NCBI RefSeq assembly: GCF_030028105.1
Contig: NC_092377.1
Span: 33,290,782-33,354,781 of the forward strand
Direction: 5' to 3'
Source of the DNA: Mobula birostris
Taxonomy: Eukaryota
DNA length: 64,000 nt
Position numbers and translations under genes: made by a program. Of this stretch, positions 4,201 through 58,669 are shown one piece after another. The notes under the pieces were generated by a model. It was not told where the DNA came from. It did not search any database and was given only the letters and a program-made list of their open reading frames with translations. Within the stretch, counting starts at the first letter, position 1; the number at the start of each line of letters is the position of its first letter.

Positions 4201-6358
4201 TCTTGTTTGACTCTTACTCTGGGTGCCCATTTTCATTGGTATTAGATCCCACTGTCAGCTGAAGATGCGTAATACCCAAACCTATCTGCAACCCATCACT
4301 TAAGGGAAGCGCTGCTTCATATCTGGCCCACTAGCTGAAATTGTAGTTCTTGTGGAGATCCCCCAAAGAAATTGTTCCATGATTCGAGATCAGGCCCTAA
4401 GATGAGGTTACAGTGAAAACTGCTAGAAAATGTAAATGACATCAGGTTAACTCAGGACCTAGCTCAATATAATGGGCCAGTTAATGAATAATTAGCTAAT
4501 AGTCACTAGTTAGATGTTAGGTGAATGTCCACTGCAGTCTCCTTCATTGTGCCTTGAGGAAAAAAATGTAAGGAGAAAGCATGACTACGGCCAAGAAATA
4601 GAACGATTATTGATGCTAGAAAAAGATTCTAATCCAAGTAACTCAAATCTCAAGTTTAGGAGCATTATTTTGATTAACTTCTTGTACCAATGATTAAATT
4701 TTTTGTGTATATGCAGGGAAAAAATAGCTGATTACAATGTTTTAATCAGTTAAACAGGTTTTGATATCTGTGATAGCTTTAATACAATAGAGTTAGTAAT
4801 CTACTGGATAAATGCTTGACAGAGATAAAAAGTAATATCTTTAATCTCCTTTTACAGGCTTAATACCTGTCAAAAAGGATTTAATATTCAAAAGCCATTT
4901 TAATGTTTTAAATTTTATTCATATTAGCTCCTTGTTAGTGAATTGAACTGTGGAAATATCATTTTATGAAATTTTACTGCCTCATTAATTTAATCAGTGA
5001 TTTCTTTTTAAAAAGCAATCCAGTCCACACAGTTTTCTCCGATAAAATGATCTGTCTAGTTTCATATCAGTCAGATTAGTATCATTTAAAGCTGTGCCGA
5101 TTAAAACGGATACTGAATGCAGGATTTCTAGATAATCCACAGTAGATTATTCATCAATAGACCTGCAATAACACGGCTGTGCTTGCGTGAATAGTATCAT
5201 GGAATAACAATGCACTAAATTGTGATGTCTGTACTGAGAAATCTGTTGCACGCACCAGAAACTCCCTGGCATGGTTGAAACTCCCTACAACAGATCATAT
5301 AACTTGTGTCTTCAAATGCATAGATATTAGAGAGTGATTTTATATGCACAATCCTGGTCCAGTTTTGTTGTGAAGATTATTGGTAGCGAGCGTACCAATA
5401 CTTTGGATATTGTCTTCCAATCCACCAGAATTTCTTCAGAACTAATTACTTGATTTGACACCCAGATCAATATGTAGTCATATTGTTACTGAGCTGGTCA
5501 CGGAGGAATCTAACTACACAAAAATTTGGGGCAATGTATGCCAGCCGTTTTAGTCTGCGGATGGCAGGAGAACCAGAGGGAGATGACGGATATGAGAGAG
5601 GAAACAAGCTACTGGAAGAGGATTGAGTGTATTCTCTGAGTCAGCATATACACAGAGGGCTGAATGGTTTCCTGTTTTTATGAAAAATGGGAAAATACAC
5701 ACTATATCACTTAAGTCCATTAGTTTCTCACATTTTTGTCAGTAATTGTACTTCCTTGGTCTGATGGTATTGTATTAGTACGAATATTTTAAAAGTCACA
5801 GTAGGATACAGTGAGAGGGAGTTGAACATTTCTTGCAGAGTGATGGTTTCCCAGCAAAGCAGCTGAGGAGAAAAAGGAGCTAGTAAGTTCTCATTAGGAC
5901 TTGATATTCGGTTTATTGGCAGAGATGATGAATAAAGGGCACAACAAAATACAATCCTGTACTTCAAGGAAGGTTGGGGAATAATTTAATACAAAGTTGC
6001 ATAGTGAAGATGAAGGGTGAGGGAATATTTTGGATTTTGCTTGATACTTTTTCCAGGATAGAGATCATATCACAAACGTTTCTAGCATTGAACAGAGTGG
6101 GTTAGAAACCATAGTAAGGACTGGAAATCCAAGTGTGCTCAGATTAAGTGCAAGATGGGCTCTGTGCTAGTGGGCATAATAGTCATGGGTTTCTCACTAC
6201 GGGCAGAATAGCCAATCCATTCTTTAGGGAATAAAATCGTGCTCTCTGTGACTGAAGTGTGGAGAAATGGAGGTAAGGGACTGAATTAAAGATTGTTTAT
6301 TTTCATTCTTCAGTGCACAAGTTTAAGGAGAACGAAATGATTCAGAGCAGGACTTCAT

Positions 6359-6530: not shown

Positions 6531-7277
6531 CAGCTGGGTGTGATGAAGACAATCAGGTTGTGTGGCTAGAGTGTGATCAATTATGTGAGAGGCTTTGTTG
6601 GGGTAACAGGCAAGTAATGTGGATGCAGGGTGTGTAGTTTGAGATTTAATCTACAAATGGACAGGGAAGTTCTGGCAAAAGCAGAGATCAGGTAAGTGTT
6701 GGTAATCATGCAAATACTGGGGATTGTGTGCAGGGAGTCACATTTGAGTAAGAGTCATGAGATGGTGTGCAAGTTGAAGCCTCTGTTGGCAGCCGTGGCA
6801 TTTGGAAAGTTGCTGAGCATTAGTACGTTGCTGGGCCATTTAAATCAAGATAAGAAATCGATGGTCTAGTGGTGGGTTTAGGAGAGTCAGGCTGAAGTTT
6901 GGGTTGTTGCTTGGACTATCTGAAGGCTTTGGGTGATAATTGGCATCTTGGAGCACTCAGGGATTGAAGTGCTTTGAAGATGGAAATTTTGTTAACTGGA
7001 GAGGAGAGGTTGGTGTGTAACCTTGCGAATGAAAGGTTAGGGGTTAGGCCTTAGCCAGCAGAATTCTGAATCAGTGTCAGTTGAAGCAGTCAATGGACAA
7101 GAAAGGAGACTCAGTATAGTGGAGTGGAGGGATGGAATGAAGGAAGCTAAGTACAGAGCATCGTTTGATACAGTCCCAGTTCAATCCTGCTCTGTGAAGA
7201 CCAACTTGCCCCAGAGTTGTCCAGTGGTTGTGGTTGCCACGACAAATTGGTCAGGATTGCTAATAAAAAATTACACA

Positions 7278-24541: not shown

Positions 24542-24900
24542 TACTATATTCCTTTTCTCTCCTCATAATCCTTAATGCTTTTTGTATCCAGAAGTCCAGC
24601 CATCAATTGCTTGTCCCTACAAATGTCTATAGCAGTGAGTTCCACACTTTCAATACTCACTTGGTGGAGATATTTCTCTCTCAGTCCTAAGTGTATTTGC
24701 TTGCACTCTGGTTATGAACTTTCCAGCTGGGGAGCATCCAACCATTCAGAATTTCAGAATTTTCCTAACATTTTCTGAATTGCAGTGAATACAGTCAGTC
24801 CCTGTTCACATGATGGTCCAGTTAATCAGTCTGTGTTCCCGTCATAGGAAGTATATCTTTTCTCAGGTCAGGAAACCAAAACTGCACACTATATTCCAGA

Positions 24901-25121
24901 AACACACATCAAAGTTGCTGGTGAACGCAGCAGGCCAGGCAGCATCTCTAGGAAGAGGTACAGTCGATGTTTCAGTCCGAGACCCTTCATCCTGACGAAC
25001 GGTCTCGGCCTGAAACATCTACTGTACCTCTTCCTAGAGATGCTGCCTGGCCTGCTGCATTCACCAGCAACTTTGATGTGTGTTGCTTGAATTTCCAGCA
25101 TCTGCAGAATTCCTCGTGTTT
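24901..25121. mobile_element. Palindromic (fold-back) hammerhead-family insertion, 221 bp
   Basis: 15-bp perfect TSD ACACTATATTCCAGA (24886-24900 / 25122-25136). Arms of about 90 bp (24901-24991 vs 24994-25084) are near-perfect inverted repeats joined at the CTGANGA core. Confidence 0.93.
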
Positions 25122-25814
25122 ACACTATATTCCAGACATGGTTCTGCCAAATCACCACAAGTTGTTTGGGTGTGACCTATAGAGCTAATTTTATTATAAA
25201 CATAGAAAATGTAAAACAGTGTACCACAAGAATAGACCCTATTGCTTACAGTGTCTGTGTTGACCATGATGCCAAATTAAACGATTCTCATGTGCTTGCC
25301 CCTGGACTGTGTTCCTCTATTGTCTGCCTTTTCGAGTGGCCATCTAAATGCTGCTTAAATGTTACTGTTATATCTGCTTTTACCGTCTCCCTTGGTAGCA
25401 CGTTCCAGGCATCTACCATTTTCTTTGCCTTACAAATCTCCTTTCAACATTTCGCCTCTCACCTCAACCTTCTGCTGTCCAGTGCAGAGCGGCCAGTGAA
25501 GGAGTGGAGCTTTGAGGCTTTGGCTCAAGAAGTTTTGGCAGTTGGATTGTGCAATCAAGTCAATCAGCATTTGAATAGCTCAGACTCAGTAGAAAGCAGT
25601 TGATTGAGCAAACGACAATTGAAAAGCTCAAACAAATAAAAAGAGGGGTAGCTCAAGCAGAGCGGCCACTGAGTGAGTGGGCCAGTGAAGGAGTGGAGCT
25701 TTGAGGCTTTGGCTCGAGAGACTTTGGTGGGCAGAGGTTGAGGACGAGCTTACTCCCAGTGAGGTAAGACCGGGTAATTTTCTTTAATTAATTTAATTAA
25801 CTTAGGAGTTGGTA

Positions 25815-52943: not shown

Positions 52944-55900
52944 AGACCATAAGACATAGGAGCAGAATTAGGCCATTCAGGCCATCATGTGTGCTTTGCC
53001 ATTCCATCATGGCTGATCCTGGATCCCACTCAACCTCATACACCTGCCTTCTCACCATATCCTTTGATGCCCTGACCAATCAGGAAACTATTAACTTCTG
53101 CTTTAAATGTACCCATGGACTTGGCCTCTGCCATAGTCTGTGATAGAGCATTCCACAGATTCACTACTCTCTGGCTTCAAAAAATTCATCCTTACCTCTG
53201 TTCTAAAAGGTTGCCCCTCAATTTTGAGGCTGTGCCCTATAGTTCTGGACACCCCCACCATATGAAACATCCTCTCCACATTCACCTTATCTAGTCCTTA
53301 CAACATTCAATAGATTTCAATGAGACCCCCCCCCCCCCGTTGCCAAACGCTCCTCATATGTTAACCCTTTATTCCTGGAATCATCCTCATGAACCTCCTC
53401 TGGATTCTCTCTAATGATAGCACATCCTTTCTGATTTGTGGGGCCCAAAACTGTTGACTCCATGTGCAGCCTGAATACTGTTTATAAAGCCTTAGCATTA
53501 GCTCCTTGCTTTTATGTTCTACTCCCCTTGAAATAAATGTCAGCATTGCATTTGCCTTCTTCACCACAAACTCAACCTGTAAGTGAACCTTCTGGGAGTC
53601 TTGCATGAGGACTCCCAAGCTCTGCACCTCTGCTGTGTGAATTTTCTCCCCATTTAGGTAATAGCCTGCACTATTGTTCCTTTTATCAAAATGCATTTTT
53701 TGTATATTTCCCGACACTTTATTCCATCTGCCACTTTTTTGCCCATTCTTCTAATTTGTCTAAGTCCTGCTGCAATTGCATTGCTTTCTCAGCACTACCT
53801 ACCCCTCCACCTGTCTTCATATCATCCACAAATTTTGCCACAAAGCAATCAATTCCATTATCAAAATCATTGACAAACAATAAAAAAGTAGTGGTCCCAA
53901 TACTGACCCCTGAGGAACGCCACTAGTCACTGGCAGCCAACCAGAAAAGACCTCCTGCATCCTGCCTGTCAGCCATTCCTCTATCCATCCCAGTGTCTTT
54001 CCTGTAATGCCATAGGATTTTATCTTGTTAAGCAGCCTCATGTGTGGCACCTTATCAAATGCCTTCTGAAAATCCAAGTGACATCCACTGCCTCTCCTTT
54101 GTCCACCCTGCTTGTTACTTCCTCTAAGAGCCCTTAACAGCTTTGTCAGGCAAGATTTCCCTTTACAGCAACCATGCTGACTTAGACTTATTTTGTCATT
54201 GGTCTCCAAGTACCCTGAAACTTCACCCTTAATAATAGATTCCAACACTTTCCCAACCACTAAGGATAACTGGCCTATAATTTCCTTTCTTTTGCCTTCC
54301 TCCTTTCTTAAAGAGTGGAGTGACATTTGCAATTTTCCGGTCCTCTGGGACCATGCCAGGATCAAGTGATTCTTGAAAGATCATGACCAATGCATCCGTT
54401 ATCTTTTCAGCAACCTCTCTTCGGACTCTGGGATGTAGTCCATCTGCCCCAATTGACTTATCCACTTAGGACCTTTCAGTTTGCCTCATACTTTTTCCTT
54501 CAAAATAGCAATGGCACTCACTCCTGTTCCTTGACACTCACAGACCTCTGGCACACTACTAGTATCTTCCACAGTGAAGACTGTTGCAAAGTATGCATTA
54601 AGTTCATCTGCCATTTCTTTGTCCCCATTACTATCTCACCAGCATCATTTTCCAGTGGTCCAATATCAACACTCACCTCCCTTTTACTCTTTATGTAACT
54701 GAAAAAAATTTAAGTAACTTGCTTTATATTATTGGCTAATTTGCCCTCATTTTAATCTTTTCCCTTCTTGTAGCTCTTTTTAGTTGCCTTCTGTTGGATT
54801 TTAAAAGCTTCCTAATCACTCACTTTTGCTATCTTATATGCCCTTTCCTTGGCTTTTATGCAGTCCTTAACTCCCTTGTCAGCCATGGTTGCCTAGCCCT
54901 GCCATTTGAGAACAACTTCTTCTGTGGAACATATCTATCCTGCATCTTGTGAACTATTCCTGGAGCATCTGTGCTCTGCCATCATCCCCACCAGTATCCT
55001 CCTCCAATCCACCTGGGCAAGCTTCTCTCTCATGCCTCTGTAATTCCTTTATTCCATTGCGATACTGATACATTATGACTTGTGCTTCTCCCTCTCAAAT
55101 TGCAGTATGAATTCAATCATATTATGATCACTGCCTCTTAAGGGTTCCTTTACATTAAGCACCCTAGTAAGATCTGGGTTATTATACAACATCCTGTCCA
55201 AGGTTGCTTTTCCCTTAGTAGGCTCAAGCACAAGCTGCTCTAAAAAGTCATCTTGTAGGCTATCAACAAATTCCTTCTCCTGCAATCTGACACCAACTTG
55301 ATTTTCCCAACCCCTTGCATATCGAAGTCCCCCCAGTACAATTGTGACATTACCCTTATTACATGCCCTTCCCAGCTCCCTTTGCAATCTCAATCCCACA
55401 TATTGGCTACTATTTGGAGGCCTATATATGATTCCCATAATGGTTTTTTAACTCCACCCACAAAGATTCAACGTTCTCTGATCCTATGTCACCTCTTTCT
55501 AAAGATGTAGTTCCATCTCTCACCAACAGAACGAAACCACCACCTTTGCCTTCCTGCCTGTCCTTTCGATACATTGATGTTAAGCTCCTAACTATGACCT
55601 TCTTTCATCCACGACTCAGTGATGCCCACAGCTTCATACTGACCGATCTCTAATTGCGCCATGAGTTCATCCACCTCATTCTGAATGCTACGCACATTTA
55701 AGTACAGCACCTTCAGTCCTGCATTGTTCACACACTCAATCCCAAGCTTACTACCCTTGAGGTTCTGCTTCTCAGCTTCCTTCCTAACTCCCCACATTCT
55801 GTTTTCAGGATCTCCTCCCTTTTTCTACCTATGGCATTGGTACCAATATGTACCACAACTTCAGGCTACTCACCCTCCCTTTTCAGGATATTGTGGATGT

Positions 55901-56925
55901 GTTCAGAAATATCACGGACCCTGGCACCTGGGAACCGGCTGGTGGCATAGTGGCATTAGCGCTGGACTTTGGAGCGAAGGCTCCTGAGTTCCAATCCAGC
56001 CAGCCCCCTTGCACGCTTTCCATCTGTGCTGGGTTGAGCGTTGAGCTAGCAACTCAGCCTTGTAAAAACAAGAAAGCCTGCTAAAAAAATGCCGTCATGA
56101 CAGCGTCCCGATGACTCCACTCGGAGTTAAGGGCTTTCTTCTTCTTCTTCTGGGAGGCAAGCTGCCATCCATGTTTCTTTTTTGCGTCCACAGAATCACC
56201 TCTCTGTCTCCCTGACTATAGAGTCCTCTATTACTGCTGCTGTTCTCTTCAGTTCCCTACCCTTCTGAGCCACAGGGCCAGTTTCAGTGCCAGAGGCATG
56301 GCCGCTGTTGCTTCCCCCGGGTAGGTCGTACCTAACAAAAGTATTCAAAATGGAGTAATTATTGTTGAGGGGCATGGCCACAAGGGTACACTCCACTATC
56401 TGTCATTCTCCCTTACCTCTCCTGATAGTCACCTGTCTATCTGTCTCCTGTAGCCTTGGGGTGATTACCTCCCTGTACCTCCTGTCTATCACTGCTTCAC
56501 TTTCCCTAACAAGGCAAAGGTCATCGAGCTGCAGTTCCAGTTCCTTCACACGGTCTCTAAAGAGCTGCATTTCGATGCACCTGGTGCAGATGTGGCCATT
56601 GAGGAGGCTGATTCTTCCCTGAAAATCTCACATCTGACATCCAGAACAGAACACTTGCCCTGTAGACATACCCCTGTTCTCCCAAGTTAAATTAGAAATA
56701 AGGAACGAACTTACCTGCTTACCTGTCTCTGCCTGTTCTCTCCGAAGCCCACCTACCACTCTGACTCAGACCACTCCGCCAACAACCACTCTGCTAGACG
56801 GTACTCTTCTTTTGTGGAGACTGGGTTTTTAAAGCTCTTTGCCGGACTTGCGCAAGAACACTTCCACTGCATCTACGCAGTACTCCAATCAAAGCCTCTT
56901 GTTGAAAAAAACTTGCTGCTTTTTA
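52944..56925 (-). mobile_element. Near full-length older CR1 LINE, second subfamily
   Basis: ORF1 start at 56669: MSTGQVFCSGCQM*D..HICTRCIEMQL..ELELQLDDL. Also ITESW, IYRPPN, SDHNM, QHGCCKGKSC, DFQKAFDKVPH, GVPQGSVLGPLLF; tail at 52944. Has internal deletions. Confidence 0.92.
55934..56149 (+). mobile_element. tRNA-headed SINE (tail type B, (TTC)n)
   Basis: A-box TGGCATAGTGG, B-box GTTCCAATCC, same body as 37715, different 3' end with (TTC)n. TSD CTGGGA (55928-55933 / 56150-56155). Confidence 0.9.
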
Positions 56926-56980
56926 CATCAAAGTTGCTGGTGGACGCAGCAGGCCAAGCAGCATCTGTAGGAAGAGGTAT

Positions 56981-57016
56981 AGTCGACGTTTCAGGCCGAG
57001 ACACTTCGTCAGGACC
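56981..57016 (-). ncRNA. Minimal hammerhead ribozyme, intact core, one stem II mismatch
   Basis: GGTC-CTGACGA-AGTGTCTCGGCCT-GAAA-CGTC-GACT. Confidence 0.75.
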
Positions 57017-57028
57017 CTTCTCTCATTA

Positions 57029-57064
57029 AGTCCTGACGAAGGGTCTCGGCCTGAAACGTCGACT
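57029..57064 (+). ncRNA. Minimal type I hammerhead ribozyme, intact
   Basis: AGTC (57029-32) CTGACGA (57033-39) AGGGTCTCGGCCT GAAA (57053-56) CGTC^ GACT (57061-64). Stem I is AGTC/GACT; stem III is the palindromic ACGT; predicted cut after 57060. Confidence 0.85.
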
Positions 57065-57833
57065 ATAGGCATTAGGATGGAGTTGCAGGAGTTTACAGGG
57101 CCAGGTGATAACTGTCTCAGGCTTCCAGTTTAGTCTCTGATACATTGTAACCAAAAATTTTGATAGTGAGGATGATTGTACCATTGACGAAAGTCAATGT
57201 GAGATGTTTGGTTTACTTGGAGTGAGGAAAGTTCTGCAATAGTTAAACTTGATGACATGGTACATGAATGTAGCAGCTGTGAAGGTGAAGTGAGTTCAAA
57301 TTGGACAAGTTCCGAAGATGGAAGAGGAAGAAACTTTTGCATTCAGTTTGTGTATGTGGTGTTCAGTTCATGTATGTGGTGCTTGGTACAGATCTGGCTG
57401 AGAAGAGTTATAATGGCAGCAGAAGGAATGGGCAGCAGAGCTGAGGGGGCTAATTTGATTGATTCAATGATAATGGGAGGGGACATAATGCAAGGCTGGA
57501 GTCATTTTACACTCAGTGGTCACTTTATTTTGTACACCTGGGCACTACTTGTTATCGCAAATATCTGATATGCCAATCATGTGGCAGCAACTCAATACAC
57601 AACAGCATTCAGACACGGTGAACAGGTTCAGTTATTGTTCAGACTAAAAGCAGAATGGGGAACAAATATGATATTAGTGACTGTCGACGGCAGACAGTGT
57701 GGTTTGAATATCACAGAAACTGATGATTTCCTGGGATTTTCACGCACAATCAGTCTCTAGAGTTTATAGAGAATGGTGTGAAAAACAATGAGTGGCAATG
57801 TTGTGGGTAAAAATGCATTCTTAATGAGAAAAG

Positions 57834-57869
57834 GGTCCTGACGAAGGGTCTGGGCCTGAAACGTCGACT
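57834..57869 (+). ncRNA. Minimal type I hammerhead ribozyme, intact core
   Basis: GGTC CTGACGA (57838-44) AGGGTCTGGGCCT GAAA (57858-61) CGTC^ GACT; predicted cut after 57865. Confidence 0.82.
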
Positions 57870-57966
57870 GTACCTCTTCCTAGAGATGCTGCCTGGCCTG
57901 CTGCGTACACCAGCAACTTTGATGTGTGTTGCTTGAATTTCCAGCATCTGCAGAATTCCTCGTGTT
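57834..57966 (+). mobile_element. Young hammerhead-family insertion (133 bp) inside the Tc1 element
   Basis: TSD TGCATTCTTAATGAGA(A/G)AAG (57814-57833 / 57967-57986; 16 bp perfect, 20 bp with 1 mismatch). The insert starts at stem I of the ribozyme. Confidence 0.93.
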
Positions 57967-58545
57967 TGCATTCTTAATGAGAGAAGTCAGAGGAGAAGGG
58001 CCAGAATGGTTCAAGCTGACAAGAAGACAACAGTAACTCAAATGACTTCACATTGCAAAGGAGTTGTGCAGAAGAGCATCTCTGAATGTGTAACACATTG
58101 AACCATAAAGTGGATCAGCCACAGCAGTAGAAGACCAGAAGCATCCACACAGTGGCCACTTTATTAGGTTCAGAGATACCAAATAAAGTGGCCAATGAGT
58201 GTACAAAGCCACAGGAAACTTTGGCTTATTCAAGACTTAAAACTAAGCCCTGCTTGTAGATAATGTTGTTTATGGCTTAATTGGAGGACATACTGTTAAA
58301 GGCCTTAAGGCATGAGACGATCCATAAGACAGTGGCTCCAATTAATAGATTATGGCAAGGAAAATAGACCGTTAAGTTATATAGAAAGCTCCTTAGAGGT
58401 TGTGATTTCAAGCCATGGTTGCAATTTGTTGGTAATTTATGGATCTGATCAGAACGGTCTGTTTCTTATAAGTATATTAGCATTTTGATTGGAGGGATTT
58501 AGTTGGAAAATTGCCTTATAAAGCTACCAACTACATCTTAAAGGT

Positions 58546-58669
58546 GCCAGCCGGTGGTGTAGTGGCATCCACACCGAAGTCTGAGGCAAATGTTCCTGGG
58601 TTCAAATCTGGCCAGCTCCATGCATGCTTTCCACCCGTGCTGGGTTGAGCGTCGAGCTAGCAACTTGGC
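58546..58669 (+). mobile_element. tRNA-headed SINE, same family, lacking its tail
   Basis: TGGTGTAGTGG, GGTTCAAATCT, GGGTTGAGCGTCGAGCTAGCAACTTGGC; flanked by AAGGT at 58541 and 58670. Confidence 0.8.

Follow-up and report, generated by a model that had tools for sequence, protein, structure and literature searches.

A young head-to-head Penelope-like insertion in Mobula birostris whose loop was probably copied from the junction of a neighbouring copy

EN+ Penelope-like elements are described as leaving inverted, 5′-truncated copies with a 30-40-bp tail (PMC8557442; PMC11167929), and the passage that treats the origin of these inverted ends calls it undefined (PMC8557442). In vitro, a Penelope-like protein cleaves both strands and extends each of them, using two internal starts, and the relevant passages of that study leave the steps after priming unvalidated (PMC11167929). 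For L1, pairing of the cDNA with nearby homologous DNA has been proposed, and the passages on L1 templated insertions give templates of less than 250 bp that typically lie no more than 15 bp from the site (10.1101/2024.08.27.596794, with Gilbert et al. 2005 as its reference for the pairing). Local inversions and inverted duplications from remodelled break ends have also been reported at L1 sites, in passages of a further study (10.1101/2024.12.14.628481). In titles, abstract openings and passages from a mainly open-access literature, we found no report of host DNA within the loops of inverted Penelope-like insertions. Here, we describe what is, on its sequence, likely a new young insertion whose loose DNA end briefly copied the junction of a neighbour, leaving a rare fossil trace of how the element is completed.

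The window, by which we mean the whole 64,000-nt stretch of DNA that was analysed, contains two copies of the same element 0.8 kb apart, named A (57834-57966, forward strand) and B (56925-57067); element positions are numbered from 57834. A is a 133-nt pLTR end with its tail and belongs to an older subfamily (G37, T38, G50 and C60, with CG at positions 128-129). It is flanked by a 20-nt target-site duplication (TSD), whose left copy (57814-57833, forward strand) differs from the right copy (57967-57986, forward strand) only by a later G>A change at 57830, and the first 1-3 bases of this duplication may be microhomology with the element end. A lies within a short element that is bounded by TA and bears terminal inverted repeats (57510-58201; 15 related copies), which we take to be Tc1/mariner-like. 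The right end of this host transposon (58146-58201) carries a 24-bp palindrome and an Rfam match to mir-9256 far below the gathering score.

B had been read in the first-pass annotation as a single inverted copy, which missed a second, direct arm; it is a hairpin, and the 14-mer lies in its loop. The long arm (56925-57015, reverse strand) holds positions 2-92 of a young-subfamily element (A37, C50, T60) in inverted orientation, and the loop (57016-57030, reverse strand) consists of A's extra junction G and 14 nt of A's target-site DNA, also inverted. The short arm (57030-57067, forward strand) holds positions 2-39, including the minimal hammerhead motif and the allele A37, and base 57030 is common to the loop and the short arm. 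No TSD was found at the junction where the short arm ends. B can be assigned to the head-to-head Penelope-like pLTR insertions, ordinary in form, with a loop that corresponds to the 5′ junction of A, and the locus itself, 143 nt long, is dead and shows no sign of function. Elsewhere in the window, at 24887-25137, there is a plain head-to-head insertion of the same family, with arms to about 99 and 133 and a 15-nt target-site duplication.

A and B are assigned to the truncated pLTR ends of an EN+ Penelope-like retrotransposon with a minimal hammerhead motif, because longer copies extend upstream into a coding frame with RT and GIY-YIG. One copy of the B subfamily (L214) has an 809-aa frame with a YIDD motif, whose RVT_1 match (E 5.4e-6, 26.7 bits) lies under the 29.6 cut-off, and the translation of another copy (L137) matches GIY-YIG (PF01541, E 3.5e-5, 24.4 bits) over the 22.6 cut-off and contains GVIYCVRCSQCGLLYIG. 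Two shorter pieces gave no family in the domain search. The repeats probably resemble those of cartilaginous fish. L214 (230-3338, G000:C9) is itself a long young-subfamily copy, with a frameshifted GIY-YIG part beside its RT frame. By eye, a minimal type I hammerhead motif is recognisable at 57030-57065, with the CUGANGA and GAAA core, stems I and II and an NUH site. The Rfam search returned no hammerhead match at E up to 1, and the predicted folds were no stabler than shuffles (z-scores of -0.06 to -0.85), which is uninformative; helix III is described as usually missing from PLE hammerheads in the source passage (PMC6155905). The earlier label "hammerhead copy" is therefore apt for the motif and misplaced as a name for the element, since the element is a Penelope-like pLTR end. 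A non-LTR retrozyme was also considered and rejected: A is single, B is head-to-head, longer copies enter the RT-EN frame, and there are no tandem non-coding hammerhead units.

The head-to-head form is common in this family, with 663 exact hairpins with 8-30-nt loops genome-wide. Among 53 hairpins examined, 36 reached a TSD score of at least 11 (against 1 of 309 null pairs), 36 had a long arm ending at 127-134 and 27 a short arm ending at 94-105; some of the failures were older subfamilies where arm calling broke down. The family thus shows inverted 5′-truncated copies with a 30-40-nt tail on one end, as given by arm ends of 127-134 and 94-105. These arm ends and the TSDs fit both the inverted copies with such a tail and the two internal priming sites described in passages of the literature (PMC8557442; PMC11167929).

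The junction common to A and B was then examined at the level of single bases. The reported match between the reverse complement of 57001-57030 and 57820-57849 was confirmed at 28 of 30 bases, with mismatches at 57830 and 57847, and the alignment extends to 106 nt with 7 differences (57820-57925 against the reverse complement of 56925-57030; 93% identity). The first 14 nt are, as had been stated, host target-site DNA and not part of the element: the 14-mer of B is identical to 57973-57986 in the right target-site copy and one base off the left copy of A. Two extra bases at the left junction of A are present in B and absent from A's right TSD. The claim that B contains the unique insertion junction of A also held, as the junction pattern TTAATGAGARAAGGGTCCTGA gave exactly two matches, A and B, in 4,014,635,230 bases, and the control gave 0, so that the leader cannot be a subfamily consensus. 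By chance, an in-register match of at least 13 of 14 bases is expected at 2.6e-7, or at 4e-5 with four bases discounted as stutter. An assembly artefact is unlikely, because 7 sites distinguish A from B and because Logan contigs of organism A (runs X1 and X4, one sample, possibly the assembled one) cross the right junction of B with 0 differences over 57038-57601; none of the Logan contigs listed spans the loop itself.

The bodies of the two copies come from different subfamilies. At the diagnostic sites, B has A37/C50/T60 (with A37 on both arms) and A has G/G/C, and positions 128-129 are GT in full young-subfamily copies and CG in A. The A37/C50 pattern has 67 exact matches genome-wide, 44 of them with T60 as counted from the listing, B included; the G37 pattern has 38,655 matches, and T60 occurs in none among the 100 matches listed. 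The long arm of B differs at 2 of 91 positions from a copy on another contig (L124) and at 6 of 91 from A, its short arm does not differ from L124 at all, and A and B have no derived base in common. Since B carries the young-subfamily marks and sits closer to L124 than to A, its body is best read as the product of a young RNA and not of A, and A is required as a template only for the last 15 or so bases of the long arm. The proposed local origin from A's junction is accordingly kept for the 14-nt leader, which was likely copied there, and dropped for the body of B. Divergence is 0.71% in B's class (6 of 849 sites, 10 copies) and 3.65% in A's class (49 of 1343 sites, 16 copies including A). These class ages favour the insertion of A before that of B, though A itself is off the family majority at only 2 of 85 sites and so is not proven older than B. 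Five of the 67 A37/C50 matches fall within 2.2 Mb (G000:C3, 240.8-243.0 Mb), four of them with T60 and two forming the arms of one palindrome; this cluster possibly reflects local hopping or the proximity of a source copy. In 33 of 43 single hairpins, the two arms carry matching bases at the diagnostic sites. That each hairpin as a rule takes two RNAs is not claimed, as the 10 of 43 hairpins with discordant arms are about what point mutation and locus selection would give. The hairpins L096/L111 and L130, whose arms differ at two diagnostic sites, could stem from two RNAs and lie within the same range.

B interrupts an old LINE (52944-56924, reverse strand; RVT_1 E 1.1e-13), presumably CR1-like, whose 5′ region it cuts off. 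Nearest copies of the LINE 5′ region are 73-80% identical, and 13 of 29 copies continue past 56924. B as a 5′ extra of the LINE insertion was ruled out, because the LINE 5′ region is about 20% from its nearest copies, those 13 of 29 copies run on, and a second organism (organism B; contigs of runs X5 and X7, one sample) carries the flank of the LINE but not B. Single-copy-depth contigs of this organism match 56821-56925 and then continue with 45 unmatched bases, and on the other side, at the right junction of B (57067/57068), match from 57068 after 221 unmatched bases. B is absent from organism B, which holds about 220 or more other bases at the site; unmatched bases on both sides indicate that host DNA was lost where B inserted. 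The flanks differ at 13 of about 950 bases between the organisms, in line with the age of the young subfamily. Organism B also has 23 extra bases at window position 57088. Two related SINE-like copies lie at 55936-56150 and 58547-58665, one of them within the LINE.

We propose, at a probability of roughly 0.7, that B is a young-subfamily head-to-head insertion in which a free cDNA end annealed to A, grew by 15 bases into the flank of A and was then joined to the second arm. On the architecture of the family and the in vitro work, the element endonuclease would have cut the LINE 5′ region, with both broken ends priming reverse transcription and the left end doing so at about position 92, close to the family's internal start (94-105). 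The long arm, in which young-subfamily sequence is observed, would have been made from young-subfamily RNA. At position 2, the usual cDNA stop of the family, the 3′ end may have annealed to the top strand of A, which offers the best homology nearby (up to 90 nt, 0.8 kb off), and would there have been extended over the junction G and 14 target bases. A's DNA probably served as the template, the alternative being a nascent transcript through A. After its release, the cDNA would have been connected to the second arm either by a 2-nt AG microhomology or by folding back on the CTT/AAG termini of the 14-mer. The right junction lacks about 220 or more host bases and any target-site duplication, which may have been lost at insertion or later. 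Extension of the cDNA across A's junction would explain why the two extra junction bases are found in B and not in A's right TSD. A point against this path is that the loop of B retains the ancestral G of position 57830, which is now A in the left TSD of A, so that this change must postdate B.

Other routes to the same loop were weighed against this one. The first-pass annotation had offered the same reverse-transcription event, re-insertion of A with its flank, or an inverted duplication, all of which make B a copy of A that changed later. The identical junction and the 93% identity over 106 nt would suit such a copy. The subfamily marks speak against all three routes: three changes would be needed that jointly recreate a subfamily with about 0.1% of the exact matches, or else conversion by such a rare donor, and no derived base is common to A and B, so that we regard this origin as highly improbable. 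A and B might instead have been inserted together by particles with RNAs of two subfamilies, the cDNA of B having paired for a short time with the open left end of A or with its new second strand, as an aborted inversion of the 0.8 kb between them. The loop of B does preserve the TSD as it was before the change at 57830, private changes are similarly few in A and B, and synchronous L1 events exchanging ends are described in a passage on L1 (10.1101/2024.08.27.596794). Synchrony nevertheless seems unlikely given that divergence in A's class is about five times that in B's, that two subfamilies would have to cut 0.9 kb apart simultaneously, and that the arms of most single hairpins (33 of 43) are concordant. 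Capture from a distant copy of the host transposon was rejected, as the GAAG variant occurs in only 1 of 15 other copies and the junction in none.

Also against the homology-guided step is a stutter, GGAC-CCTTC, which mimics four of the junction bases and occurs without a neighbour. It was seen at 11 loci, B included, among the 100 matches listed, and in 6 of 54 fetched hairpins, an enriched sample. The cDNA of B could have stuttered to ...GGACCCTTC, paired over 4 nt with GAAG of A's right TSD and copied 10 bases, leaving the long homology unused. This would agree with the identity of the loop to the right TSD, with the existence of such stutters at other loci and with the capture of other loops without long homology. 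We hold it to be less probable again than synchrony, since only about 10 other loci among the matches listed stand against 663 hairpins, and since this GAAG would have to be chosen among many nearby, bypassing an adjacent 90-nt homologue. With slightly lower probability still, reverse transcriptase may have left the young RNA and continued on a nascent transcript through A by way of their common 5′ sequence. The sequence so predicted is the same as under pairing with A's DNA, and insertion without hammerhead cleavage is possible in vitro according to the passages of that study (PMC11167929); against it, the local sources of loops lie in both orientations, which DNA explains more simply.

We further asked how general such copying is. 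Among 48 neighbour pairs with non-element leaders, only A and B have their leader in common (14 of 15); the next three pairs (12, 10 and 9) were judged by eye to share upstream sequence of older subfamilies, and capture of a neighbour's junction was found in 0 of the 47 other pairs. A first survey found 0 of 20 other short loops over the null, with low power at 10-14 nt. Then 44 other hairpins with unusual loops, chosen from the matches listed, and B, together an enriched sample, were compared with their own 10 kb and with each other's 10 kb. Four of these 45 selected loops (B, L250, L292 and L295) are locally templated, and for 41 of 45 no convincing local source was found. L250, L292 and L295 exceeded the null maximum. 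The loop of L250 matches its source at 31 of 32 nt, 0.34 kb from the insertion end, with the TSD intact; this 34-nt loop (4984-5017, G000:C29), with unique source DNA right of the intact insertion (5453-5484), is the cleanest case of local templating. In L295, 15 nt match exactly a unique, inverted source 1.6 kb away (about 6622-6636, G000:C19), and in L292, 36 of 42 nt (4983-5024 against 4315-4356, G000:C16) match in direct orientation 0.5 kb away, the source being a repeat with other copies at 78-80%. L195, at 13 against a null of 12, is marginal and was not counted. In B, L250, L292 and L295 a short host sequence is copied and its source remains, as in L1-type templated insertions.

In the masked test B stayed under the null maximum, because the mask hid the right TSD; unmasked, it scored 13 against a null maximum of 12, and the strength of its loop match lies in the in-register position. 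Five loops (L223, L251, L253, L254 and L255) are element-derived. The 34-nt non-element loop of L249 (4985-5018, G000:C4) lacks a source within 15 kb, and the genome holds no second copy of its central 21-mer. Templating of loops from nearby DNA is thus recurrent, and copying of a neighbour's junction was observed in a single instance. Support for the homology-guided step comes from this one case, because 0 of the 47 other neighbour pairs show capture and the sources of L250, L292 and L295 adjoin no family copy. As the tested sample was enriched, locally templated loops likely make up less than a few percent of hairpins genome-wide.

Taken together, these loops suggest a wider picture, for which we see somewhat less than even chances: during Penelope-like integration, the two cDNA ends may be free to sample DNA up to about 2 kb away and to be extended on it before joining, and an older neighbour copy may capture such an end by homology. 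The loops of head-to-head insertions would then preserve traces of local strand invasion. Where an invasion ran to completion, the DNA between neighbouring copies would be inverted or deleted, which may open a way to local rearrangement in a genome that holds tens of thousands of family copies. In B, subfamily marks separate the RNA-derived body from the neighbour-derived junction, which is rarely possible, and B and the three further loops offer a countable, testable signature of the joining step in Penelope-like integration.

The comparisons with known systems that follow are limited to what the cited passages describe. The family resembles EN+ Penelope-like elements in the order of RT and then GIY-YIG, in the minimal pLTR hammerhead and in head-to-head arms that differ by a tail of about 35 nt. 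In those described elements no host DNA lies between the arms, whereas the loop of B is a neighbour's junction, and B has neither tail nor TSD. Non-LTR retrozymes (10.64898/2026.07.22.740005) have a type I hammerhead related to PLE pLTRs, as is the case here, but they are tandem non-autonomous repeats, whereas A and B are truncated ends of a coding element. As at L1 sites with break-end inversions, free resected ends yield inverted copies of DNA up to about 0.9 kb off together with deletions; there the host end folds on itself, whereas the inverted host piece of B lies inside the element, on a cDNA end. L1 templated insertions likewise involve a cDNA end that takes up a short piece of genomic sequence by copying in the course of integration, a process compared to synthesis-dependent strand annealing. 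In contrast to their templates within 15 bp, the sources here lie 0.3-1.6 kb away and the copies lie between two cDNA arms, and in B, unlike in L1, the template is a neighbour of the same family.
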